A DNA stretch of 64,000 nucleotides from Rhodothermia bacterium (lineage in GTDB: Bacteria > Bacteroidota > Rhodothermia > Rhodothermales > UBA2364). This document shows, piece by piece, positions 14,475-60,385 of this stretch. The notes below the pieces were generated by a model. It made no database searches and was not told the origin of the DNA. It saw nothing but the letters and a program-made list of their open reading frames with translations. Position numbers and translations under genes: made by a program. Every line of letters begins with the position of its first letter. The first letter of the stretch is position 1. Location: the NCBI GenBank assembly GCA_017303715.1, contig JAFLBZ010000014.1:3708-67707 (forward strand). The letters run 5' to 3'.

Positions 14475-15851
14475 ATGTCCATTTTTTCCAGTAAAAACGT
14501 TAGCCGACTAACGCTTGTGGCGGCACTTGGCTATTTTGTGGATGTTTATGACCTCCTGTTGTTTAATGTCATTAAGGGTGATAGTCTAAAAGACCTTGGG
14601 CTTGCGGGTATCGAGAACGAGGCCGCTTTGCTCAACTTCCAAATGTTCGGGATGTTGTTAGGCGGCATCATGTGGGGGATTTTGGGAGATAAAAAAGGAC
14701 GTGTAACGGTACTTTTCGGCTCTATACTCACCTATTCAATTGCTAATTTGGCCAATGCTTTTGTGGTCGGGTTTTGGGATTATGCCTTGTGGCGGTTTAT
14801 TGCCGGATTCGGGTTGGCGGGCGAGTTGGGGGCTGGCGTGACCTTGGTTTCCGAGACCATGGAGAAGGAGAAACGAGGGATTGGGACGATGATTATCGTT
14901 TCTTTTGGCGTTTTGGGCGCTGTTGTGGCCGTTTTAGTGCATGAGGCGCTTGGATGGCAAAATGCCTTTATCGTGGGCGGGGTCATGGGACTTGCCTTGT
15001 TACTTCTACGAGCGGGCGCTTTAGAGTCTGGCATGTTTGAAGGGATCAAAAAATCCGACGCCGTAAATCGAGGAGACTTTTTTCACCTCATCACACAAGA
15101 TAAAACCATCCGTAGGATTTGGGAGGTCTTGTTACCTGTTTCGTTGCTTGCGTTCGTGCTAAGTTTTCTGTTGCCCGCATACAGCACCTTGTACCGCACC
15201 ATTTTTGGCATCTTAGGTATTGGTATTGTGGTGCAAATGGTACGAGATGCACGCTTCCGAAAATATATGTATTGTATTTTATTGGGGATGCCCATTTGGT
15301 TCGTTATTGGGATTTTGGTCTCCTTCTCCAATCGTTTTGCGGTGGTAACAGGGGTTACGGGAGATATTTTAGTGCCTACAGCCGTTGCCTTCTGCTATTT
15401 AGGACTCTCGATGGGGGATTTTGCTTCCGGTTTATTGAGCCAAAAACTCCGTAGCCGCAAAAAAGCTATTTTAGCCTTTTTGGGATTAATGACTGTCGTA
15501 GTGCTGGCCTTTTTGTTCTTGCGTGGCCTTAGCCCGACGGTTTATTACACGCTTTGTTTTCTATTGGGTTTTTCAGCGGGATATTGGGCAATTTTCGTCC
15601 AAAATGCCTCCGAGCAATTCGGAACCAACTTGCGCTCTACGGTTACGAACACCGTGCCCAATTTCGTAAGAGGGGGCTTGGTGGCCATGTCGGCGGCGTT
15701 TTTGGCACTCATCCCCAATCCTAAAGTGCCGGATATGTACTTTATCCACTCGGCGCTTATTGTGGGGGGCGTGGTGATTATAATTGCCTTGTTCTCAACG
15801 TGGGCTATTCAGGAAACTTTCTCGAAAGACTTGGACTACGTGGAGGAATAA
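14475..15851 (+). CDS. MFS transporter
   Basis: 458 aa with about 12 hydrophobic segments. GDKKGR motif in the loop 2-3 position. Confidence 0.8.
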   Translation: MSIFSSKNVSRLTLVAALGYFVDVYDLLLFNVIKGDSLKDLGLAGIENEAALLNFQMFGMLLGGIMWGILGDKKGRVTVLFGSILTYSIANLANAFVVGFWDYALWRFIAGFGLAGELGAGVTLVSETMEKEKRGIGTMIIVSFGVLGAVVAVLVHEALGWQNAFIVGGVMGLALLLLRAGALESGMFEGIKKSDAVNRGDFFHLITQDKTIRRIWEVLLPVSLLAFVLSFLLPAYSTLYRTIFGILGIGIVVQMVRDARFRKYMYCILLGMPIWFVIGILVSFSNRFAVVTGVTGDILVPTAVAFCYLGLSMGDFASGLLSQKLRSRKKAILAFLGLMTVVVLAFLFLRGLSPTVYYTLCFLLGFSAGYWAIFVQNASEQFGTNLRSTVTNTVPNFVRGGLVAMSAAFLALIPNPKVPDMYFIHSALIVGGVVIIIALFSTWAIQETFSKDLDYVEE

Positions 15852-15875
15852 CCGCCGTATTTTTGACGTACTTTG

Positions 15876-15908
15876 AGGGTTGCCTATAGGGCGACCCTTT
15901 TTGTTTTG
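15876..15908 (+). terminator. rho-independent terminator after the first MFS gene
   Basis: agggttgcc / ggcgaccct stem (one G-T), loop tatag, then tttttgtttt. Confidence 0.6.
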
Positions 15909-16006
15909 TGCCAAAAATACAATAGAACGAATGGGCTTTGAAGTTTGTGGGACGAAAAAAAATGAGCAAAAAACTTGAACAATCGCTTCTTTAGAATCAC
16001 TGCGTT

Positions 16007-17242
16007 ATGGCTTTCAAGATTGAACAACAAAAGGTAGCAAGGCGAATTACCCTTGTAGCAGCACTGGGGTATTTTGTGGATGTCTTTGATATTGTTTTGT
16101 TTAACATCGTTAAAACGGATAGCCTGCGCGATCTTAGGGTGCTGCCGGAGCATATGCTGGTGTACGAAGTGGGGTTGCTAAATTGGCAATTGGGTGGCAT
16201 GTTGGTCGGTGGCCTGATGTGGGGAATTTGGGGCGATAAAAAAGGGCGGCTTTCGGTATTGTTTGGCTCCATCATTACCTATTCATTGGCCAATATCTTT
16301 AATGCGTTTATTACCGATGTGGCTTGGTATGCGCCGTTGCGGTTTTTGGCTGGTGTGGGCTTGGCCGGCGAACTCGGAGCGGGTGTAACCTTGGTGGCCG
16401 AAACAATGGAACGGGAAAAAAGAGGCATCGGAACCATGATGATTACCGCTGTTGGGGTTTTGGGGGCGGTTTGTGCGGCTTTGGTGGGTAAGATAATGCA
16501 CTGGCAAACGGCTTATCTCATTGGCGGGTTTATGGGGCTGGCCTTGCTGTTCTTGCGGGCAGGAACCTTGGAGTCCGAGATGTTTGAGCGACTGCTGTAC
16601 AATCCCGACATCAAAAAAGGCAGTTTATGGCTTATTCTTAGGGATAAACAAAGGCTGCTGCGGTATGTTTGGGTGGTGATGATTGGCTTGCCCGTGTGGT
16701 TTTTGGGTGGAATTGTGGTTCCACAAGCCCACCGATTTGGGGAGGCTTTGGGGGTTACAGGGCCAATTTTCGTGAATGATGCTGTGATTGTTTTTTATTT
16801 GGGCATTGCCTTAGGTGATTTGCTAAGTGGTGGCCTAAGCCAGTGGTTTAAGAGTCGGAAAAAAGTTCTCATTGGGTTCCATGTGGTTTCCTTTCCGTTA
16901 TACACCTTGCTTTTTGCAACATTCGGGTTATCCCCTACGCTTTTTTATATGGTCTTGTTTTTATTGGGTGTAACGTGTGGTTTTTGGGCGGTTTTTATCT
17001 CGATGGCCGCCGAGCAATTCGGAACCAATATCCGCTCTACCGTCACGAATACCGTTCCCAATGTAGTGCGCGGTCTTACCATTCCCATGACTGGCGTCTT
17101 TTTGTGGGTCTTGCCCATCGTACATGGAAGTATGGTGCTGGCTGCGGCTTGGGTGGGCTATGGAGTCTTGGCGATCGCTTTGGTGGCAACCCTACAAGTG
17201 GAAGAAACGTTCTCCAAAGACCTTAACTATGTTGAGAAGTGA
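16007..17242 (+). CDS. MFS transporter (paralogue of the upstream gene)
   Basis: 411 aa. Near-identical stretches to the neighbour (LVAALGYFVDV.D..LFN, GDKKGR, AEQFGTNLRSTVTNTVPN, ETFSKDL.YVE). Confidence 0.8.
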   Translation: MAFKIEQQKVARRITLVAALGYFVDVFDIVLFNIVKTDSLRDLRVLPEHMLVYEVGLLNWQLGGMLVGGLMWGIWGDKKGRLSVLFGSIITYSLANIFNAFITDVAWYAPLRFLAGVGLAGELGAGVTLVAETMEREKRGIGTMMITAVGVLGAVCAALVGKIMHWQTAYLIGGFMGLALLFLRAGTLESEMFERLLYNPDIKKGSLWLILRDKQRLLRYVWVVMIGLPVWFLGGIVVPQAHRFGEALGVTGPIFVNDAVIVFYLGIALGDLLSGGLSQWFKSRKKVLIGFHVVSFPLYTLLFATFGLSPTLFYMVLFLLGVTCGFWAVFISMAAEQFGTNIRSTVTNTVPNVVRGLTIPMTGVFLWVLPIVHGSMVLAAAWVGYGVLAIALVATLQVEETFSKDLNYVEK

Positions 17243-17384: not shown

Positions 17385-18183
17385 TTAACTCCGTCCTTCA
17401 GGGCGGAGGCATCAAGCAAGAACTACGCATAATGCGATATTAACTCCGTCCTTCAGGGCGGAGCAGTAGGCCCGGAAATAGCCTTGGGCTTTAGCCCTGA
17501 ACGGTGGTAAAAGGCGAATGCCGTGCGCTGGAAACGGTTTTCTACGAAGATGTCACCCCTACGGGGCTTTTCTTTTCGTTTGATGTCGGCTTTCTACGAA
17601 GATGCCACCCCTACGGGGCTTTTCTTTTCGTTTGATGTCGGGTTTCTACGAAGATGTCACTCGCTGGGGCTGGGTTGTGCGTTATCATGGCTAAAGCCGG
17701 AAGGGGTGGCCGTTGCACACAGCCCCACGCTGAAGCATGGGGTTAATATGAAGCCGGAGAACAGGGGACAACGTTGCTCGTCTGAATGTGGACGTAAAGC
17801 AAGCAAAAACAATGATTAACGAAACAGCAATGTCGTCCTTCAGGGCGGGGTAGTAGGCTCCGAAATAGCCTTGGGCTTTAGCCCTGAACGATCCCCAACA
17901 TGTATGCCGTGCGCTGGGAATGGTTTTCTACGAAGATGTCACCCCTACGGGGCTGGGCTTTGCGTTTGATGTCGGCTTTCTACGAAGATGCCACCCCTAC
18001 GGGGCTTTTCTTTTCGTTTGGAATGGTTTTCTACGAAGATGCCACCCCTACGGGGCTTTTCTGTTCGTTTGGAATGGCTTTCTACGAAGATGCCATCTCG
18101 CTGGGGCTGGGTTGTGCGTTATCATGGCTAAAGCCGGAAGGGGTGGCCGTTGCACACAGCCCCACGCTGAAGCATGGGGTTAA
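17385..18183 (+). repeat. mosaic hairpin-repeat array A (two tandem composite elements holding 3 and 4 copies of a ~52-bp unit)
   Basis: Core unit tttctacgaagatg[c/t]cacccctacggggcttttcttttcgtttgatgtcggc starts near 17538, 17591, 17643, 17924, 17977, 18027 and 18079. Each composite is preceded by the hairpin ctccgtccttcagggcggag plus agtaggc.cggaaatagccttgggctttagccctgaacg. Each ends with catggctaaagccggaaggggtggccgttgcacacagccccacgctgaagcatggggttaa. Confidence 0.9.
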
Positions 18184-18391
18184 AACAATGCCAGCAACTT
18201 TTTGAACTCGGCGGCCATGCAAAATGGCAGCCATACAAAATTTATGCAACCCACCACAGGCGACAATCTGGTTAACCCATAACACCCTTTATTTTTTAAA
18301 AAGTCTTGCAAATGAGACCATAAACCCATACCATTGCATGGTATATTACAAGATAAAAATGGCAAGGCATACCTTTTAAAAAATCCATTCT

Positions 18392-20290
18392 ATGAATCGG
18401 GAAGAGATATTTGTTGAAAACAAACGGCGGAATACAGAAGCACTGCCGTTGGGAACCATTCTTTGTGGACGCTACGAGGTGGGGCGTGTCTTAGGGCGCG
18501 GCGGTTTTGGCGTTACTTATCTCGCATGGGATCAACGCTATGAGGTTGAGGTGGCCATCAAAGAATTTTTCCCCAGTCCGAACGAAACCGGAATAGACCG
18601 CAAGGTGCAAAATGGACAAATCTTACCGGATTTAGACGTCCCCAATCGGAATATCCGTTTGGAAAATGGCCAAGTGGAACCCTTCTCGCGTCTGTTTGCA
18701 CGGGAAGTGGCAAATTTTCAGGCAGAGGCCAAGAAAATGGTCGGATTCCGGAAAATAGCCAATATCGCAACCGTAATAGACGACTTTACCGCACACAATA
18801 CCGCCTATTATGTGATGGAGTTCTACAAAGGGGAAACCCTGTGGGACGTTTGGGAAAAGGCAGATATGCAGCCTTGGTCTTTAAATAACGTGCTCAAGGT
18901 GTTGTTTCCCATGATAAAGGCACTCGAAAAAGTTCATGCAAAAGGACTGGTACACCGAGACTTTAAGCCACAAAACGTCTTGATTTGCAACGATGAGGAA
19001 GACGAAGTGGTTTTGATTGATTTTGGTCTGGCCAAGGCATTGGGCAATAGTGGCCTGATTAGTACCAAGGGGGAATTGGGAACGCCCTTGTATGCACCCT
19101 ATGAACAGCAAAGCCGGATACACAACCATGGGCCATATAGCGATGTCTATAGTGTTGCAGCCACATTTTACCAACTGTTAACCGGGGAACTGCCCAGTCT
19201 ATCGAAAGACCGCGAAGAATACGGGCGAGCGGGATATACCGACCCAATGGTCTTCCCCGAAAAAGGACTACCCAAGGGGCTAAAAAAAGTCTTGGATAAA
19301 GCCATTGCCATTTATCCAAATGACCGCTACCCAACCATGCAGGCATTTCGTGAAGCCATTGAAAATTGCCTTGGCGCCAGCGAAGAACGCTTTTTGAAGG
19401 ACATCAAAGAAGTGCTTGCCAAACCTATTGCCCCACCAAAGCCTATTGTCCCGCCCGCCAAACCCGCGCCAGAACACCGCCCGCTACAGGCCGGAGACCG
19501 CATGGTACACACCTTGGGTGGCGTAACTTTTGCCTTCCGATATTGCCCACCGACAGCAACACCCTTTATGATGGGGGATGCAACATGGGACGACGCAAAA
19601 CCCCACAAGGTACAACTGACCAAGGGTTTTTGGATGGCCGAGACCCCGATTACACAAGAGCAGTTTGCCATATTTGTACATGAGAAGAAATACCAAACAC
19701 AGGCCGAACGAGAGGGTGGTGCTTGGATATGGAATGGAAGTGAGTTCATTAAAGACCCTAAAGCAGAATGGCGAACGGTATATCCCGGTCCCAAACGCCC
19801 AGTGGTAGCGGTCTCTTGGAACGATGTAAATGCTTTTTGTGACTGGCTCTCGGAGCGATTGGGGGTGGAAGCGGCATTACCCACCGAGGCGCAGTGGGAG
19901 TATGCAGCGCGTGCAGGGGGCAAGGGAATGTATGGGCTTAACCACAAAAAACAAGAAATCACAGAAGCAACTCTCGCAGAAGTGGCTTGGTTTGGAAAAT
20001 CACTTGAAATAGGGACCAACGAGGTTGGGAAACTAAACCCCAATGCGTTTGCCTTGTATGATATGCTGGGCAATGTTTGGGAATGGTGTAGGGATGTATT
20101 TGACTCTGATTTTTATCAAGACAATCAAAAAGATCCTGTAAGTTTAACAAAAAATTCATCTGACCGTGTTGTTCGTGGGGCTTCGTTTAACGACTACTGG
20201 CGATACTTGCGTGTTGGGTTTCGTAGCCTCAGCTTCGATAATTTCAGGAACGATAAGCTCGGATTTCGCCCCCAATACATTAAGATTTGA
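18392..20290 (+). CDS. Ser/Thr protein kinase fused to an FGE-sulfatase (SUMF1-like, C-type-lectin fold) domain; DGR target protein
   Basis: 632 aa. Kinase motifs GRGGFGVTY, VAIKEF, HRDFKPQNVL, DFGLAK. Pro-rich linker KPIAPPKPIVPPAKPAP. FGE-type motifs SWNDVNAFCDWL, LPTEAQWEYAARAG, GNVWEWCRD. No TM segment seen. The last ~45 codons are the VR. Confidence 0.9.
   Translation: MNREEIFVENKRRNTEALPLGTILCGRYEVGRVLGRGGFGVTYLAWDQRYEVEVAIKEFFPSPNETGIDRKVQNGQILPDLDVPNRNIRLENGQVEPFSRLFAREVANFQAEAKKMVGFRKIANIATVIDDFTAHNTAYYVMEFYKGETLWDVWEKADMQPWSLNNVLKVLFPMIKALEKVHAKGLVHRDFKPQNVLICNDEEDEVVLIDFGLAKALGNSGLISTKGELGTPLYAPYEQQSRIHNHGPYSDVYSVAATFYQLLTGELPSLSKDREEYGRAGYTDPMVFPEKGLPKGLKKVLDKAIAIYPNDRYPTMQAFREAIENCLGASEERFLKDIKEVLAKPIAPPKPIVPPAKPAPEHRPLQAGDRMVHTLGGVTFAFRYCPPTATPFMMGDATWDDAKPHKVQLTKGFWMAETPITQEQFAIFVHEKKYQTQAEREGGAWIWNGSEFIKDPKAEWRTVYPGPKRPVVAVSWNDVNAFCDWLSERLGVEAALPTEAQWEYAARAGGKGMYGLNHKKQEITEATLAEVAWFGKSLEIGTNEVGKLNPNAFALYDMLGNVWEWCRDVFDSDFYQDNQKDPVSLTKNSSDRVVRGASFNDYWRYLRVGFRSLSFDNFRNDKLGFRPQYIKI
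20156..20279 (+). repeat. DGR variable repeat (VR)
   Basis: 124 bp collinear with 22116-22239. All mismatches correspond to A in the template copy. The core boundary 20162-20279 is firm. The first 6 bp are less certain. Confidence 0.9.
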
Positions 20291-20300
20291 CAATTTTACT

Positions 20301-20326
20301 TTTTTAAAATTTATAAATTTTAAAAA
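20301..20326. repeat. perfect 26-bp A/T palindrome immediately downstream of the VR and target stop codon
   Basis: tttttaaaatttataaattttaaaaa is its own reverse complement. It lies 11 nt after the stop at 20290. Confidence 0.85.
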
Positions 20327-20357
20327 TTTTTTACATTTTTCCAAATGTTAAATTCTT

Positions 20358-20714
20358 ATGAATCCGAATACTCAACCCGTTGTTATTCTTACGAAGTGGT
20401 ACGACTTTGTGTTTTGGATGACACAGAAGGTGCAGCATTACCCTAAGTCCTATAAATATACGCTGGGAGACCGGATTCAAACGCAAATGTTAGACATCTT
20501 GGAAATGTTTGTTGTTGCCCAATACAATAAGGAACAACGAAAACAAACCCTACGACACATCAATATTGCGATCGAAAGACTGCGATATTTAATTAGGTTG
20601 TCAAAAGACCTTCATTGTTTATCAATGGCACACTATGAGTTTGCCGCAAAGCAAATGTTGGAATTAGGAAAAATGGTTGGAGGTTGGGAAAAGCAATATG
20701 CCACGACAATTTAG
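20358..20714 (+). CDS. avd: Avd-like four-helix-bundle protein (DGR accessory variability determinant)
   Basis: 118 aa. Helical and basic, with the pattern W..F..W......PK..KYTLGDRI......IL typical of the four-helix-bundle/Avd family. Sits between the VR and the RT and overlaps the RT start. Confidence 0.8.
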   Translation: MNPNTQPVVILTKWYDFVFWMTQKVQHYPKSYKYTLGDRIQTQMLDILEMFVVAQYNKEQRKQTLRHINIAIERLRYLIRLSKDLHCLSMAHYEFAAKQMLELGKMVGGWEKQYATTI

Positions 20715-22099
20715 CAATTTGTATCCTGATATATGTACTTTTGAAAATCTATGGAAAGCGTTTCGTTATGCTCGGCGTGGGAAGCGTCATAAGCTCGAAG
20801 TCTCGATGTTTGAGCAAGACTTAGAGCGACATCTTTTCGAGATTCAGGAGGCATTAATCTCGCATAATTTCCATTTTCAAGGTTATCGTTCGTTCATCAT
20901 TACAGATCCTAAGGAGCGAGTTATTTCTGCTGCCCCCTTTCGGGATCGGGTTGTACATCATGCCATTTGCAATGTATTGGCTCCTTTAATGGATATGGCT
21001 CTTTTGGAGAATGTATATGCCTGCCGAACGGGTAAGGGTACCCATTTGGCCATTAAAAAAGCTGTGTCCTAAAAGGATTTTAATGCTTAAACGTGCGTTA
21101 TGGGTTAATGAAGTGGAAGCCTACAAAAGCCATTCCCTGCCTCAAGAGCGTCATGTAAGAACTCATGGGATTGCATAAATTCCGGTTTTACAAGGGTTTG
21201 TTCTACTTTTTAATGAGCGGTAAAGCCCCGTAGGGGTGATATCTTACTAGAAATCGGTTTCCAAATGCACAACAAAGCCCCGTAGGGGTGACATCTTTAC
21301 ATGACGAGGAAAAGCTGGTTGATCGTACCAAAGCCATCAATGTTGGCAGAGTCAGCCGAAATCCGGTGGCTGATCTATCCGACTGATTTTTCTAAGGGTC
21401 GCCCTGCCATTATTGGACAACACATCATACTATAAGATAGAGGCGATCACAATAACGAAGCTGTCTAATAGGTTTTTAGATGATCAGGTAATGGGTTTGA
21501 TCTCGAAGTTATTAGCAACATACCATTCCGATATATCCTACTATTTTCGTTTCCCGCAGGATAATTTGTTTGATGCGGCACGTCCAAGAGGATTGCCCAT
21601 TGGAAACTTAACCAGCCAATGGTTTGCAAATTTTTATCTCAATTCTATTGACCGCTTGATTAAGCAAAAGTTGAAATTACCCGGTTACGTCCGCTATATG
21701 GATGATTTTGTCCTATTTGCGGATTCTAAAGAAGACCTTTTTCATGCACAAGAAGAGGTAAAAAAAGCATTGAGTTTACTTAGGCTCCAACTTAATGATA
21801 AAAAAACGCAGATATTTCCAGTGAAAAATGGATTTCCCTTTTTGGGGCTTTACTTACGGCAAGATCGCCTACGTATTTTAAGAAATAACCTCAAGAGCAT
21901 AAAGCAAAGGCTTAGGCATCAAGCAAAAAAAATGCGAAGAGATCAAAATCTACAGCATGTAACACAATCTCTTCAAGCATGGACTGGATATTATGGACGG
22001 AAGCAGTTTCAATACATCTTCGATGAAATTCTTTCTAAACAGAGTTTTTACCGCGATGATTTAAAACAATGCTTCACCTTCACCTTAACTTATGGCTAA
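20698..22099 (+). pseudogene. DGR reverse transcriptase, reading frame interrupted (two ORF pieces, 20677/20698-21072 and 21413-22099)
   Basis: The N-terminal piece has FENLWKAFRYARRGKR, ISAAPFRDRVVHHAICNVL and ACRTGKGTH. The C-terminal piece has RGLPIGNLTSQWFANFYL (DGR-type motif 4) and YVRYMDDFVLF (YMDD). The pieces are in different frames and are separated by 340 nt containing stop codons and repeat units. Confidence 0.8.
21073..21300 (-). mobile_element. insertion within the RT gene carrying two inverted copies of the dispersed hairpin repeat (MITE-like)
   Basis: aaagccccgtaggggtgatatctt (21222-21245) and aaagccccgtaggggtgacatctt (21274-21297) are reverse complements of the array core aagatg.cacccctacggggcttt. 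The spacer ctagaaatcggtttccaaatg resembles the reverse complement of the array spacer. The RT N-terminal frame reopens at 21292. The exact ends are not determined. Confidence 0.55.
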
Positions 22100-22115
22100 A
22101 GGGATTTACCGATAG

Positions 22116-22239
22116 AAATCTAACCGTGTTGTTCGTGGGGCTTCGTTTAACAACAACAAGCAAAACTTGCGTGTTGGGTATCGTAACAACAACAACGATA
22201 ATAACAGGAACAATAAACTCGGATTTCGCCCCCAATACA
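22116..22239 (+). repeat. DGR template repeat (TR)
   Basis: Non-coding copy of the VR, 17 nt after the RT stop. It is adenine-rich with AAC-type codons in the VR frame (caacaacaagcaaaac, aacaacaacaacgataataac). Homology ends at 22240 (C versus T in the VR). Confidence 0.9.
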
Positions 22240-22337
22240 CAAAACATAAATCTCTCCTAACGGTTTGTGCTATGTGTGGTGTGTGTTTTGTCGCTTACGG
22301 GTTACAAAAGTGAGCCATTGTTGTATAGGTAAATTCC

Positions 22338-22370
22338 TGCTTCGACGAAAGTCGAGGCAAAGTTCTTTTT
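22338..22370 (+). terminator. GAAA-tetraloop hairpin plus T-run downstream of the TR (terminator or DGR RNA 3' structure)
   Basis: tgcttcgac-gaaa-gtcgaggca gives a 9-bp stem with one G-T, followed by aagttcttttt. Confidence 0.5.
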
Positions 22371-22416
22371 GGCCCTTATCCTTCGAGATCGGGGCCATTT
22401 TTTAATCCCCAATCGT

Positions 22417-23322
22417 ATGCCGCAGCAAAACCAAGATCAACGTCCCCAAGTATCTGCCCTTGTGTCTGCCCTTTTGCAAGCAATGGAATCCGGCCAAGAA
22501 GTCTATATTGCCAATCTCAAGGCAGTGGTTCCACATTGTTTTAGGATCCATATGCACCATGAAGCCTACGACCAGATGCGCCCCCACTTCACACATTTTA
22601 AGGTTATTGCGATGCAAGAGCTTGATAAGCGTTTAGAGGCTTTGAAAAAACAAGGCATCGGTGATTTTTGGGCTAAAATATGGCGTTTGATACGGGGTGT
22701 TGTCCTCAAACAGCCTTTACCGAAATTGGAAATCTCGACATTGGGGCGATGGGAAATAGAGGTGATTCAGGCATTTGACCTTGATTTGCCGATGGGGTAT
22801 TTGCGCGTGGAGGCTGGTTTTTCCTCGATTGGTAAGCCCAGCTCCCTTTCCGAATCGGTGTTTATGGGCGCTCAAACCAAAGGATTGTCTTTTATGGTAC
22901 AGGGAGATCAAGCCCTAAAAACGGCTCCCTTGGCTGGCGGCATGGCCGCAACAAGTCCATCACCACAAACCGAAGAAGATGTTTTTGCTACCTTGTCTTG
23001 GATGAACCCAGCCACCCAGTCCGAGCAACAATTTCACATCAAAACGCCCTACTTGGCCATTGGGCGGGAAGGTGCATCGGATGCGGAGTACGCACATCTG
23101 CCCGTCCTCCGGCTTTCGGGTGTTCCTGCGGAAATCTCAAGGGTACATGGCTATTTTCAGTATAAGGCCACAGAAGGCACGTTCCGCTTTAAAAACTTGG
23201 GACTACATGGCACAACCATCCTGCCACCCGCCAGAGAAACGGAGGACGGATGGGCGATTCTTGCCCCTAATTGTAGATTGTGTTTAGGAAATAAGTTGTT
23301 TGTGGATTTTGCTCAACGATGA
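22417..23322 (+). CDS. FhaA-like protein: DUF3662-like N-terminal region plus a C-terminal FHA domain
   Basis: The ORF track starts at 22369 (TTG). The ATG at 22417 (MPQQNQ) is preferred. The N-terminal part has VPHCFRIHMHHEAYDQM, resembling the DUF3662 VPN.F.V.LS..DY motif. The C-terminus has FHA-like YLAIGREGASD...ISRVHGYFQY...FRFKNLGLHGTTI. Confidence 0.65.
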   Translation: MPQQNQDQRPQVSALVSALLQAMESGQEVYIANLKAVVPHCFRIHMHHEAYDQMRPHFTHFKVIAMQELDKRLEALKKQGIGDFWAKIWRLIRGVVLKQPLPKLEISTLGRWEIEVIQAFDLDLPMGYLRVEAGFSSIGKPSSLSESVFMGAQTKGLSFMVQGDQALKTAPLAGGMAATSPSPQTEEDVFATLSWMNPATQSEQQFHIKTPYLAIGREGASDAEYAHLPVLRLSGVPAEISRVHGYFQYKATEGTFRFKNLGLHGTTILPPARETEDGWAILAPNCRLCLGNKLFVDFAQR

Positions 23323-23399
23323 AGGGGGATTTTTGCAGGGTTTTAGGACTTTGTTGGGTTGTGATGAGGTTGGTGGTTGGCTTGGGCTATGCACCGCTT

Positions 23400-23885
23400 A
23401 TTACCCGTCGTAGGAAGATGCCACCCCGCTGGGGCTTTTCTTTGTACCGGGAATGGTTTTCTACGAAGATGCCACCCCTACGGGGCTTTCCTTTTCGTTT
23501 GATGTCGGCTTTCTACGAAGATGTCACCCCTACGGGGCTGGGCTTTGCGTTTGATGTCGGCTTTCTACGAAGATGCCACCCCTACGGGGCTTTTCTTTTC
23601 GTTTGATGTCGGCTTTCTACGAAGATGCCACCCCTACGGGGCTTTTCTTTTCGTTTGATGTCGGCTTTCTACGAAGATGTCGCTCGCTGGGGCTGGGTTG
23701 TGCGTTTGATGTCGGGTTTCTACGAAGATGCCATCTCGCTGGGGCTGTGCTTGGTCATGGCTAAAGCCGGAAGGGGTGGCCGTTGCACACAGCCCCACGC
23801 TGAAGCATGGGGTTAATATGAAGCCGGAGAACAGGGGACAACGTTGCTCGTCTGAATGTGGGCATAAAGCAAGCAAAAACAAATC
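23400..23885 (+). repeat. mosaic hairpin-repeat array B (7 copies of the ~52-bp unit plus the same terminal module)
   Basis: Units start near 23409, 23457, 23510, 23562, 23614, 23666 and 23717. The terminal module catggctaaagccggaaggggtggccgttgcacacagccccacgctgaagcatggggttaatatgaagccggagaacaggggacaacgttgctcgtctgaatgtgg is nearly identical to 17688-17800. Confidence 0.9.
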
Positions 23886-24033
23886 CAAATGCCACATTAA
23901 CGCCGTCCGTTTATATGAAAAGTACATCAGGAAATTAACGGTACAAAGTGTCCCGTAAACCACTCTAATCGGCGGACATACCGATGATGCACATAGTTTT
24001 GAGGAAATTAAATAGGGATTAGGTGATTTTATT

Positions 24034-26308: not shown

Positions 26309-26725
26309 GTATCCAGCCGGACCATCGCCCGATAATTGCGGGAGGAAAGTCCGAACACCATAGGGCAACATGCTTCCTAACGGGAAGGCAACTGCTTGTT
26401 AAAGTTCTTTTGCAAGCGGTTGACAGCAAGTGCAACAGAAAATATTCCCGCCGATGGCCTTTCGGGGTACAGGTAAGGGGTGAAATGGTAGGGTAAGAGC
26501 CTACCAGCACATTGGGTGACCATTTGTGGCTGGGCAAACCTCATGTGGTGAAAGACCAAGCAGTGTAAGTTGCCCCTAAAGGGTGACACGGGCGGCCCGT
26601 CCGGAACTCCTTACACGGGTAGGTTGATAGAGGCGGTCAGTGATGGCCGTCCCAGATAAATGATGGTCTCCCCATTTCGAGCGACCATAAGTGGGCAGAC
26701 AGAATTCGGCTTATAGGCTGGACAT
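26309..26725 (+). ncRNA. rnpB: RNase P RNA, bacterial type A
   Basis: Conserved blocks gggaggaaagtccgaacac, gcaacagaaaa, ggtaaggggtgaaatggtagggtaagagcctaccag and agacagaattcggcttataggctgga. The 5' tccagcc pairs with the 3' ggctgga (P1). The ends are good to about +/-5 nt. Confidence 0.9.
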
Positions 26726-26739
26726 CGTGGTCGTATTTC

Positions 26740-52753: not shown

Positions 52754-52879
52754 ATTTTACCTGACCTCTAAATGATTTTACCTGACCTCTAAATGATTTT
52801 ACCTGACCTCTAAATGATTTTACCTGACCTCTAAATGATTTTACCTGACCTCTAAATGATTTTACCTGACCTCTAAATG
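52754..52879. repeat. perfect tandem repeat, 6 x 21 bp (attttacctgacctctaaatg)
   Basis: Counted directly. Units start at 52754, 52775, 52796, 52817, 52838 and 52859 with no mismatches. The array lies about 80-230 nt upstream of the minus-strand operon start. Confidence 0.95.
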
Positions 52880-58486: not shown

Positions 58487-60385
58487 TTATAGGGTCTTAG
58501 GTTCATCATTAAATGTGCAATGAACGGGAGGAGTCCATTGCCATATGGCGTTACAAAGCCGAATTTCGTCTGCTTGTACCAAATCCTCAAGCGTGAGGTC
58601 TGCCTCGCTTGCCTTGGTGTGAGGTTGTGCCAGCACAAATTGCCGATATATCCCCGGTAATGCACCCGATTGGCATCTTGGTGTGAGCCAATGGCCATTC
58701 TTTCGGATAAAAATAGTTGAACGCGAGCCTTCCGTAACCAAGTTATCTTCATTGAGGAAAATGACCTCAAAGAATCCGGCCTTTACTGCACGGGCATACT
58801 CAGCTTCGTAGAGGGATCGCTGTGTGGTTTTATGTTGATAAAACGGATCTGAAGCGGATGTTCGTACAGGGGAGATACAAATTTTAGGTGGATTTTGCCA
58901 TTGGGGCTGTTGTGCGATGGGCTGTGCGGTGTACTTGAAGTGACCATGTTCGTTAAGCGATATGCGTAAACGAGTGGGTTTTTGGGGTTTTTCGGTAGCG
59001 ATAAATGTCTCAATAACTTCAAGGAAGTGTTGTTTTTGGAATGGGATCTGGAAATAAGCCGCCGATTTTTCCATACGTGCTACATGATAAGGGAGCAGGG
59101 GAGCACCATTGTCCCAGCGCATGGTTTCGAAAAGTTCGATCGGTTTTGCGGGTGGGTCGGTTAAAAATCGGGCTTTTAGCAAGCATTCGTCATACTCGTC
59201 GCTGGCGTTGGAATCCCAGACCACGCCGCTTCCTACACCTAAACTGCCTTTGTCGTGTTGTATAGTAATCGTCCGTATTGCTACACTGAAAACGGCTTTT
59301 TGGTTTGGTGAGACGTAGCCAATTGCGCCACAATATAGGCCACGCGGGTTTGGCTCAAGGGCGGCGATCCGTTGCATAGCACGTTGTTTGGGCGCACCTG
59401 TTACCGACCCACAAGGAAACATTGCTTTAAATATCTTGGAATAAGGCGTGTTTTCCACCAATTTTCCTGTGATAGTAGAGGTCATTTGGTGAAGGCTACG
59501 GTAGGTTTCGATGTCGAAAAGGGATTGAGTGAGGACACTCGCGGGTTCACAAATCTGTGAAAGATCATTACGGAGAAGATCCACGATCATGAGGTTTTCC
59601 GCACGGGATTTCTCGTCGTTTTGTAAATACTGGGTTTGTAAAAGGTCTTCTGCAACGTTCCGGCCCCGTTGAGTGGTTCCCTTCATCGGACGTGTGGTAA
59701 TCTTTTGGCCGTCTATCTCAAAAAAAAGTTCTGGGGAAAGGCTCAGGAATGTCTCGGTTTCGGTTTGGAGGAAGGCACTATACCCCACTGCCTGCTTCTG
59801 GCGGAGGCTTTTATAAAAAGCAAAAACATCTCCCTCAAAATCAAATTGCATTTGTCCGGTGAGGTTGATTTGATAAACATCTCCTTCTTGGATGAGGGTG
59901 CGAATTTTCTCAATTTGCTGGGTGTACGGTACTCTTGACCAACTAAATACTGGCCTTCCGGCATAAAATGGAGCTTCATGTGTTGCGTCAAATGCTCGTT
60001 GAGGTCTTGTATAAACGCCAAACCATGCCAAAGTCTCTGGCAAAACAGGCTTTGGCGATACCGAGACAAAGGCGTACCCTGCTTCATAACTCAAAAATCC
60101 GGCAACAAAATAACCATTATTAACTGCCCGATCCACCTCTTCGAGAAGGGGAACTACTTGGTCTAAGTGGGTTGCCTTCAGTTGCGCAATAGGGTTTTGA
60201 AAGCATAAAAGACGATCCCCTTGGGCCAATGGATGGGTGGTCTCAAGTAGAATCGTTCCCGGAAGATGTGTCATACCCGCTTTTTTTTCATAATTTAAGC
60301 GCAGGAGCAGCCTTTTTTGAAGTTCTTCGTTTAGATTCAGCAGAGGATATTGTGGGATAAAAAAAGAGCCGATGTGGCTCCACAT
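58487..60385 (-). CDS. pabB: aminodeoxychorismate synthase component I fused to an aminodeoxychorismate lyase-like (class IV) domain
   Basis: Chorismate-binding blocks (YQINLTGQ, LSPELFFE, MKGT..RG, FPCGSVTGAPK, RGLYCGAIGY), then a C-terminal fold-type-IV region (NEDNLVTEGSRSTIF, GALPGIYR). An alternative start at 60274 is possible. Confidence 0.85.
   Translation of the reverse strand: MWSHIGSFFIPQYPLLNLNEELQKRLLLRLNYEKKAGMTHLPGTILLETTHPLAQGDRLLCFQNPIAQLKATHLDQVVPLLEEVDRAVNNGYFVAGFLSYEAGYAFVSVSPKPVLPETLAWFGVYTRPQRAFDATHEAPFYAGRPVFSWSRVPYTQQIEKIRTLIQEGDVYQINLTGQMQFDFEGDVFAFYKSLRQKQAVGYSAFLQTETETFLSLSPELFFEIDGQKITTRPMKGTTQRGRNVAEDLLQTQYLQNDEKSRAENLMIVDLLRNDLSQICEPASVLTQSLFDIETYRSLHQMTSTITGKLVENTPYSKIFKAMFPCGSVTGAPKQRAMQRIAALEPNPRGLYCGAIGYVSPNQKAVFSVAIRTITIQHDKGSLGVGSGVVWDSNASDEYDECLLKARFLTDPPAKPIELFETMRWDNGAPLLPYHVARMEKSAAYFQIPFQKQHFLEVIETFIATEKPQKPTRLRISLNEHGHFKYTAQPIAQQPQWQNPPKICISPVRTSASDPFYQHKTTQRSLYEAEYARAVKAGFFEVIFLNEDNLVTEGSRSTIFIRKNGHWLTPRCQSGALPGIYRQFVLAQPHTKASEADLTLEDLVQADEIRLCNAIWQWTPPVHCTFNDEPKTL

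Follow-up and report, generated by a model that had tools for sequence, protein, structure and literature searches.

Evidence for a chromosomal, kinase-targeting diversity-generating retroelement in a Rhodothermia bacterium, with an interrupted reverse transcriptase allele that coexists with intact ones

We analysed a 64,000-nt stretch of DNA (hereafter the window) from a Rhodothermia bacterium (Rhodothermales; UBA2364), assembly GCA_017303715.1, contig JAFLBZ010000014.1, positions 3,708-67,707 of the forward strand. We consider it highly probable that the window contains a chromosomal diversity-generating retroelement (DGR) of architecture B2 (target-avd-RT-TR), in which the target gene is followed by avd, a reverse transcriptase (RT) gene and the template repeat (TR), that the RT is inactivated in this genome and its variable repeat (VR) most likely frozen, and that intact alleles coexist with this one. 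The features that define the element, apart from the RT gene, are the following.

18392..20290, + strand: DGR target gene, 632 aa, with Pfam matches to Pkinase (2.3e-31) and FGE-sulfatase (1.4e-49)
20158..20279, + strand: VR, defined by ungapped alignment to TR; mutagenised span 20162-20257
20358..20714, + strand: avd, 118 aa, Pfam bAvd 1.3e-21
22118..22239, + strand: TR, non-coding, with 36 adenines in the mutagenised span and 13 AAY codons

Ungapped alignment of VR (20158-20279) with TR (22118-22239) covered 122 nt at an offset of 1960 and revealed 18 mismatches. All 18 are an A in TR, replaced in VR by T (9), G (8) or C (1), and the probability of 18 of 18 mismatches falling on the 42 adenines among the 122 positions is 2.4e-10. 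TR adenines are unchanged in VR at 24 positions. No mismatch was found at a TR C, G or T. The first-pass annotation of this DNA had named mismatches at such positions as contrary to its own proposal of a VR/TR pair differing at template adenines alone; the proposal is confirmed by the alignment. Homology stops at 20280/22240. VR forms the last ~42 codons (589-630) of the open reading frame (ORF) 18392-20290, and TR starts 19 nt past the RT stop. Translated in the target frame, TR reads K-S-N-R-V-V-R-G-A-S-F-N-N-N-K-Q-N-L-R-V-G-Y-R-N-N-N-N-D-N-N-R-N-N-K and is dominated by AAY codons, reproducing the Asn/AAC-rich residue pattern that had been described. Within the mutagenised span, 34 of the 36 TR adenines are at codon positions 1 or 2, and the theoretical repertoire from TR is ~10^20 protein variants. 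The final 22 nt of VR (20258-20279, CTCGGATTTCGCCCCCAATACA) are the same as in TR, unmutagenised, and contain a GC run, resembling the constant end of an initiation of mutagenic homing (IMH) sequence; cases of identical IMH and IMH* were remarked on by Wu et al. 2018 (PMC5758913). Two more A-to-N differences had been claimed at 20156/20157. These were not upheld, as TC stands here in all VR haplotypes and also in the sister lineage described below, opposite AA in both TRs, so that they more likely mark the edge of homology than mutagenesis. An A-masked TR pattern matched VR and TR alone in the window, giving no further target. Another 632-aa ORF (58487-60385) was considered as a second target and rejected, since it is unrelated to the target gene.

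To follow variation at the locus, the window was compared with other contigs that carry it (L numbers). Over 3.1 kb, 29 differences separate the window from L004. Eighteen of these lie inside the 122-nt VR, each of them opposite a TR adenine (Fisher p = 3e-19). The contigs represent three VR haplotypes (window/L003, L004/L009 and L005), with substitutions at TR-adenine positions alone; the L005 haplotype, from a contig with 2.5x coverage, additionally has a 2-nt indel. Each of the three was seen, without any change, in several independent samples. All contigs that include TR (L001, L005, L006, L007 and L008) have the same TR sequence. The first-pass annotation had asked whether population variation would be confined to positions opposite TR adenines, and this is what was seen in all VR haplotypes of the contigs. 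The net 2-nt insertion of L005 (~1880-1900; window 20189-20205) lies opposite the AAC-AAC-AAC run of TR and shifts the frame, giving a 653-aa product. It could be a DGR-generated indel, of a kind remarked on by Wu et al. 2018 (PMC5758913), or an error in this low-coverage contig. An odd run of G-to-T differences was also observed in L005 at window 21844-21853. The window and L004 also differ at nine positions of the target gene outside VR; three of them (18397, 18889, 19321) are Asn-to-Lys changes via third-position T/C-to-A.

A sister lineage (L011, L002), with a target protein (P0122) of 86% identity and an RT (P0002) of 82%, has a TR/VR pair of its own, in which adenines account for all 18 mismatches. 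The sister TR differs from the window TR at six positions, and at six of six each VR carries the base of its own TR. Two further RTs, P0003 (51% identity) and P0005 (45%), belong to cassettes of the order target-avd-RT-TR as well, and the TR/VR pairs of these show 22 and 20 A-to-N differences, respectively. All four relatives of the RT that were examined lie in avd-RT-TR cassettes with A-specific VRs. Collectively, these results show that adenine-restricted, TR-directed rewriting of VR has occurred in this lineage; this is past activity, not current activity in this genome. The sister target protein, VR included, is identical in at least six samples. No sister-lineage assembly continues from the target gene into avd: six contigs (L011-L016) end ~117 nt past the target stop, and L002 begins ~200 nt before avd. 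Directly 3' of the TR that accompanies P0005, there is a 165-aa ORF with a weak match to Y1_Tnp (IS200/IS605-type tyrosine transposase; L021 5578-6075, L022 2943-3440), which is noteworthy given the repeat-element damage to the window RT.

This damage divides the RT gene into two fragments.

20698..21070, + strand: RT gene 5' fragment, 124 codons, with a stop at 21070-21072; profile positions 2-124
21071..21452, unstranded: 382-nt segment in place of 75 nt of RT coding sequence; junctions set against L001 and L005
21453..22099, + strand: RT gene 3' fragment in another frame, profile positions 147-353, with IGNLTSQ and YMDD and without motif A

The two RT ORFs, 20698-21072 and 21413-22099, are in different frames, and the sequence between them has stops in all frames. 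Of the RT described in the first-pass annotation, the IGNLTSQ and YMDD motifs stand and lie in the 3' fragment, but its treatment as an intact gene does not, because the gene is split, the frames differ and motif A is replaced. A homolog search with the concatenated RT halves identified an intact 364-aa protein, P0001, 94% identical over the query. The contig that carries P0001, L001, represents the same genome as the window. It is 100% identical to the window over 20373-21070 and 99.9% over 21453-23484, and has 75 nt in place of the window's 382 nt (21071-21452). The whole cassette with an intact RT was also found in L005, with the same break points as in L001. The lost 75 nt encode LMKKHQWVLKMDIKKYFYTIDHEIL, which is motif A with the catalytic Asp. 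A profile built from 120 RT homologs matched the window at positions 2-124 and 147-353 only; positions 125-146 are missing, and nothing RT-like was found inside the 382 nt. In an alignment to 8ub7_A (328 aa), the lost 'LKMD' is opposite 'LKSD' ending at residue 138. The active-site residues of the Bordetella phage RT, bRT, are D138, D215 and D216 (bioRxiv 10.1101/2023.10.23.563531). Because the lost LKMD aligns to LKSD/D138 of bRT, the window RT is without one of three catalytic aspartates. The loss of motif A and the frame shift suggest that the window RT is most likely dead, and since the RT gene would thereby be inactivated, VR is most likely frozen in this genome.

The interrupted allele was also assembled in L003, L004, L006, L007 and L009, from several read sets and with Logan and SPAdes. 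The contigs of sample ERZ795037 break precisely at both junctions, with 21070 as the last position of one and 21453 as the first of another, which is the expected effect of a mixture of both alleles on a de Bruijn graph. A split produced by assembly of this metagenome-assembled genome (MAG), through a repeat-induced mis-join within the 52-nt repeats of the segment, might be suspected, as copies of these repeats also occur 3 kb to either side and short-read contigs often end at them. We regard such an artefact as extremely unlikely. The junctions are reproduced by six independent contigs from at least five assemblies made with different assemblers, and L006 spans both junctions at 99.97% identity to the window.

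We examined the kind of RT using the intact P0001. Its best match in the PDB was 8ub7_A (4.6e-44). Group II RTs followed at no better than 2e-18, retron Ec86 RTs reached ~4e-4, and matches to chains deposited as 'retron-type' scored down to 4e-16. From its 328-aa length, the sequence around D138 and the number of entries, we infer that 8ub7_A is bRT and that 8ub7-8ube are the nine bRT-Avd-RNA complexes of the preprint cited above. P0001 scored 161 bits against the group II intron model TIGR04416 (cutoff 300) and 77 bits against the retron model NF038233 (cutoff 235), and was below the NCBIfam curated cutoffs of the Drt and AbiA models too. No Rfam match to a group II intron RNA or a retron RNA was found in the window. 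By match scores and cassette context, the RT classes as one of the DGR kind rather than a group II, retron or defence RT; a place among group II intron or retron RTs, which the first-pass annotation had named as contrary to its proposal, was not seen. The Avd-like gene that had been noted between the repeats was confirmed by NCBIfam NF033474 DivGenRetAVD, a DGR-specific equivalog, at 101.8 bits (cutoff 80). The order VR, avd, RT, TR, as originally read, corresponds to architecture B2. Taken together, adenine specificity, Avd, the kind of RT, the B2 order, population variation and the concerted evolution of TR and VR bear out the DGR classification. Ordinary duplication, with two repeats diverging by chance or by a general mutational bias and no retroelement, is a vanishingly improbable account of the same data. 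Nothing beyond the existence of the repeat favours it. It is opposed by the probability calculated above for the restriction to adenines, by the direction of the asymmetry (the non-coding copy always holds the A), by population differences restricted to the same positions, by TR and VR evolving in concert and by the presence of a dedicated Avd and a DGR-type RT between the copies.

The 382-nt segment is related to repeats that bracket the cassette.

17413..18275, unstranded: upstream repeat block, two tandem composite units of 91-nt element, 52-nt array and 167-nt element
23402..23908, unstranded: downstream repeat block, 52-nt array and 167-nt element, bracketing the cassette

The segment comprises a left arm (21071-21221), two 52-nt repeat units (21222-21297) and a right arm (21298-21452). 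Neither arm (~150 nt each) has a second copy in the window. Of the 52-nt unit (core AAAGCCCCGTAGGGGTGRCATCTT) there are 12 copies, all at most 3.5 kb from the cassette and none elsewhere in the 64 kb. The 52-nt arrays at 17483-18120 and 23402-23758 are inverted relative to the two copies within the RT gene. The 91-nt elements are at 17413-17503 and 17800-17890, and the 167-nt elements at 17672-17838, 18109-18275 and 23742-23908. The 52-nt repeats are absent from the sister-lineage loci, and the 75-nt segment is present in all RT homologs, which makes the intact form of the RT ancestral. No clean insertion signature was seen at the 382-nt segment, and sequence was replaced instead. Our conclusion is that the RT gene was damaged by a repeat family that is local and expanding. 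L009 has an identical left arm and a right arm that is an ~85% variant with a 24-nt indel, so related copies of the segment exist somewhere. The left arm and the repeat/right-arm junction were not found in GTDB species genomes, and the 52-nt repeat core and the A-masked TR pattern were not found in JGI metagenomes; the species is evidently not among the GTDB species genomes and JGI metagenomes scanned.

Neither strand of the segment has coding potential, its RNA folding gives no signal (z = -0.11), and Rfam returned no match even at E <= 1. Three other identities were tried for it and rejected. Its ends looked RT-like by eye ('LMLKRALWV', 'LDNTSYYKIEAITI'), but as diverged RT coding sequence they gave no match to the 120-homolog profile and local DNA alignments were at chance level. 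The right arm was considered as a minus-strand gene fragment, as the L009 differences looked conservative, but it has stops in all frames and the variants share no frame. A self-splicing intron was dismissed on the fold score, the Rfam result and the missing 75 nt of exon. In a broader form, the segment could be removable, as a self-splicing intron or a programmed DNA switch, with full-length RT still being made. The coexistence of both alleles with identical junctions in the same sample set, the presence of the interrupted allele on two backgrounds and the inverted orientation of the 52-nt repeats flanking the cassette would agree with this. We consider it very unlikely nonetheless, because the missing 75 nt are nowhere within the 382 nt by profile search, so that excision or splicing could not restore motif A. 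The RT halves are also in different frames, the fold and Rfam searches were negative, and no recombinase gene is nearby.

Intact and interrupted RT alleles thus coexist in a natural population, and in the interrupted alleles avd, TR and the RNA elements flanking TR are perfectly preserved. Several points weigh against an inactive RT and a frozen VR. The inactivity of the interrupted allele is deduced from its sequence, and the identity of 8ub7 with bRT from length, sequence and number of entries. Two VR haplotypes (window/L003 versus L004/L009), distinct at 18 adenine positions, occur with the same interrupted allele; this would also fit diversification after the interruption. The search for a second RT covered 64 kb of the genome, and a DGR RT acting in trans is possible beyond these. 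Continued diversification in cells with the interrupted RT, by a compatible RT supplied in trans from a second DGR or a co-resident element, would account for the two VR haplotypes with their 18 TR-adenine differences and for the preservation of avd, of TR and of the RNA elements beside TR; among genomes with a DGR, ~10% contain at least two (PMC5758913). We judge it unlikely, as there is no other RT in the 64-kb window, the VR haplotypes recur unchanged in several independent samples, as if frozen, and recombination in the population can by itself pair one RT allele with different VRs. L005 is such a mosaic, sharing four target-gene single-nucleotide polymorphisms (SNPs) with L004 and having the RT-5' sequence of the window. 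The window is more similar to the intact L001 than to the interrupted L004, and the two SNPs of L004/L009 in the RT 5' part are synonymous changes from the ancestral state. Recombination is most simply taken to explain the two VRs beside one RT allele. With an inactive RT and a VR most likely frozen in this genome, DGR activity could still be restored by recombination, because intact alleles coexist and TR and the RNA elements are intact.

A further reading, to which we give only modest credence, is that the 382-nt cassette is a recurrent or selected 'off' allele that spreads by recombination and locks favourable sensor variants, amounting to on/off control of the DGR at the population level, or else that VR diversification continues via an RT in trans; in addition, the kinase and its FhaA-like neighbour (described below) would form a two-gene sensor-reader module. 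An 'off' allele is allowed by the coexistence with intact alleles, the identical junctions on two backgrounds, the two VR haplotypes and the untouched state of the other parts.

The RNA elements that flank TR, and a palindrome downstream of VR, are listed here.

20301..20326, unstranded: AT-only perfect palindrome of 26 nt, with an 11-bp stem and a 4-nt loop, 21 nt downstream of VR and before avd
22100..22114, + strand: pre-TR duplex strand, AGGGATTTACC.ATA, part of a long-range RNA duplex enclosing TR
22240..22363, + strand: spacer-like RNA region with duplex strand 22324-22338, GAAA-capped hairpin 22338-22359, then AAAG
22371..22403, + strand: terminator-like GC hairpin and T-run, conserved in L002

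The non-coding sequence from the RT stop to ~22400 is ~92% identical to that of the sister lineage, compared with 95% for TR and 70% for RT third codon positions. In the consensus fold, 22100-22114 pairs with 22324-22338, followed by the GAAA hairpin, AAAG and the terminator-like hairpin, which is likely the 3' end of an avd-RT-TR transcript. The same layout was found in L002, L020 and L021, where the pre-TR strand pairs immediately 5' of an invariant CCTGCT motif. Over four lineages, in an alignment anchored on invariant motifs, 97.7% of the cells of the 11-bp helix are paired and double compensation is seen in 6 of its 11 pairs, compared with 36-61% pairing in controls with the register slid by 1-3 columns. 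Two points are to be set against the duplex: it is drawn from four sequences in a register that we chose, though anchored by the invariant motifs, and the energies of single duplexes are not significant versus shuffles. As the energies are individually non-significant, the case for it rests on position and covariation. In phage DGR RNA, the cPRT Stop consists of an avd:Sp duplex, a stem-loop and adenosines, and has been predicted in 207 DGRs (bioRxiv 10.1101/2023.10.23.563531). The putative duplex enclosing TR, with its hairpin and adenosines, matches this arrangement. A sigma-70 promoter scan gave no enrichment over shuffles, with a model unsuited to this phylum. The palindrome 20301-20326 is AT-only, with a DNA fold z of -2.4 and partial conservation in the sister lineage (L002 ~150-185), and is a candidate for a target-site hairpin/cruciform or a transcription signal. 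GC-rich inverted repeats are present in just 34% of DGRs (Wu et al. 2018, PMC5758913).

The target protein consists of an N-terminal Hanks-type Ser/Thr kinase, a Pro-rich linker and a C-terminal FGE-sulfatase/CLec-fold domain (aa 392-626), and is identical to MBN8588317.1 from a Rhodothermia bacterium MAG. The kinase motifs VAIK(54), HRDFKPQN(188) and DFG(210) are present. VR sits at the C-terminus of the FGE/CLec domain, where up to 19 codons are rewritable. No transmembrane segment or signal peptide was found in the protein (maximum Kyte-Doolittle 1.33 in a 19-residue window), and because it has no hydrophobic segment able to span the membrane, it is probably cytoplasmic. The variable FGE/CLec domain may sense an intracellular ligand and control or direct the kinase; both functions have been proposed for cyanobacterial homologs (PMC7517822). 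The kinase domain strongly matches the PADLOC models of the single-gene anti-phage kinase PD-T4-6 (best 4.9e-50) and of MADS mad6, in a library without curated cutoffs. These matches may reflect generic kinase similarity, and are a lead for a defence-sensor reading.

Downstream of TR lies another gene.

22417..23322, + strand: FhaA-like neighbour ORF, 301 aa from ATG, with a putative, divergent C-terminal FHA domain

Homologs of this ORF follow TR in both the window and the sister lineage (L002 1957-2862), and in L018 (6969-7868, 63% identity) the homolog is directly upstream of the kinase-FGE gene. Since it is beside the kinase-FGE gene in three lineages, and upstream of the kinase in L018, the ORF is linked to the kinase and not to the RT. 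Just five homologs were found among 5.8 billion proteins, and FhaA_N was weakly matched by three of the five family members. A profile search of 1.8 billion representatives returned 45 proteins, and 10 of the 10 scanned carry Pfam FHA above cutoff at the position of the C-terminal domain. Residues of the phosphothreonine-binding loops (G216-R217, S241-x-x-H244 and N260-x-G262) are invariant in the family alignment. An alignment-based model (pLDDT 58) searched with Foldseek matched FHA domains nearly exclusively (best E 2.7e-3), plus the N-terminal domain of Rv0020c (2lc0, probability 0.96). A single-sequence AlphaFold model was unusable (pLDDT 38). Counting against an FHA domain, Pfam gave no significant match on the ORF itself, FHA included, and the assignment is transitive, passing through remote profile matches and the model at the confidence given. 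The ORF appears to encode a divergent FhaA-like phosphothreonine reader, and its adjacency and fold suggest that the protein is likely a signalling partner of the diversified kinase.

From the observed anatomy and the Bordetella phage paradigm, the intact form may work as follows. The avd-RT-TR transcript would end at the terminator-like hairpin near 22400. Pairing of 22100-22114 with 22324-22338 around TR, with the tetraloop hairpin and adenosines next to it, would provide an equivalent of the cPRT Stop. An RT-Avd complex would reverse-transcribe TR, misincorporating opposite adenines, and the cDNA would replace VR (20158-20279), anchored by the 22-nt constant 3' end. Up to 19 codons of the C-terminal FGE/CLec ligand-binding domain could be rewritten in this way, with ~10^20 possible variants. 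The kinase would then probably signal through the adjacent FhaA-like FHA protein, as suggested by their conserved adjacency. In this genome, the 382-nt segment with its two 52-nt units has replaced the coding sequence for motif A (75 nt) and shifted the frame, leaving VR most likely frozen.

The surroundings of the cassette are ordinary chromosome, with MFS transporters, an aminotransferase, VKOR-DsbA, RNase P RNA and nuo genes, and no prophage. Its genomic neighbours differ among three lineages (window 14475-17242, L011 6815-9700 and L018 1-6709): two MFS transporter genes in the window, a FecCD/ABC transporter operon in the sister lineage, and RsmB and an aldehyde dehydrogenase in the third. 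This changing neighbourhood suggests that the kinase-DGR module is mobile, or else that the genomes are extensively rearranged. A full-length bacterial class A RNase P RNA (26309-26729, 238.5 bits) is the sole Rfam family in the window at the gathering threshold, and no tRNA genes were found in the 64 kb. At 52754-52879, six copies of a 21-nt unit, ATTTTACCTGACCTCTAAATG, are in tandem and 100% identical.

The prototype DGR of phage BPP-1 (mtd-avd-TR-brt) shares with the window adenine-specific TR-to-VR substitution, an Avd gene, a VR at the C-terminus of a CLec-fold domain and a constant, GC-containing 3' end of VR and TR. The closest solved relative of the RT, 8ub7_A (328 aa; 4.6e-44), is probably that of this phage, and the duplex across TR, tetraloop hairpin and adenosines resemble its cPRT Stop. 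In contrast to the phage element, the window DGR is chromosomal, its TR follows the RT (B2) rather than lying between avd and RT, and its target is a predicted cytoplasmic kinase rather than a tail-fibre receptor-binding protein. In further contrast, IMH and IMH* are identical over 22 nt in the window, the repeat after VR is AT-only rather than GC-rich as in the Bordetella phage, and the RT is disrupted. The identical 22-nt end and the AT-only palindrome are within the variation described by Wu et al. 2018 (PMC5758913).

Kinase-CLec targets of DGRs are known from cyanobacteria (Vallota-Eastman et al. 2020, PMC7517822), as class b12 (Wu et al. 2018, PMC5758913) and from Thiohalocapsa PB-PSB1 (PMC10907252). 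Like the cyanobacterial systems, the window has an N-terminal Hanks-type kinase, a C-terminal FGE/CLec domain with VR at its extreme C-terminus, and an AAY-rich TR design; GNRA-capped hairpins 3' of TR were reported to be prevalent there. The window differs from known kinase-CLec DGRs in its phylum (a Rhodothermia-class MAG), in having a single target with no paralog family in the window, in the adjacent, conserved gene for a putative FhaA-like FHA protein (FHA is unmentioned in PMC7517822) and in a population that carries a polymorphic RT knock-out. An RT-only DGR remnant flanked by transposases has been described in Anabaena sp. 90 (PMC7517822). There, too, a DGR component is affected by mobile or repetitive DNA, whereas in the window VR, avd, TR and the RNA elements are intact, there is a single 75-to-382-nt replacement, and intact alleles coexist. 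The ORF 22417-23322 resembles M. tuberculosis FhaA (Rv0020c), considered here together with the Ser/Thr kinase PknB, in its FhaA_N-like N-terminus (weak Pfam match; Foldseek 2lc0), its putative C-terminal FHA domain and its location beside a Hanks-type kinase. The similarity to FhaA is very low and seen through remote profile matches only, and the linker and size differ. PknB has PASTA domains, whereas the window kinase has a hypervariable sensor domain.

The B2 architecture (avd-RT-TR) and kinase + CLec targets have both been described (PMC5758913, PMC7517822), so the locus is a DGR of known architecture and known target class in a little-studied lineage, the Rhodothermia. What goes beyond the routine is the natural polymorphism of RT-null and intact alleles, with the other components preserved, the conserved, putative FHA neighbour and the covariation support for a TR-enclosing duplex in this clade. 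The putative duplex would extend the recently described cPRT-Stop RNA architecture to the clade. The FhaA-like neighbour may be a concrete downstream partner for Ser/Thr kinases diversified by DGRs, to which the literature so far assigns hypothetical functions only. Finally, intact and RT-null alleles with otherwise identical components form a natural, haplotype-resolved contrast, which makes it testable whether VR diversity tracks the intact RT allele and whether RT-null cells may represent 'locked' variants.

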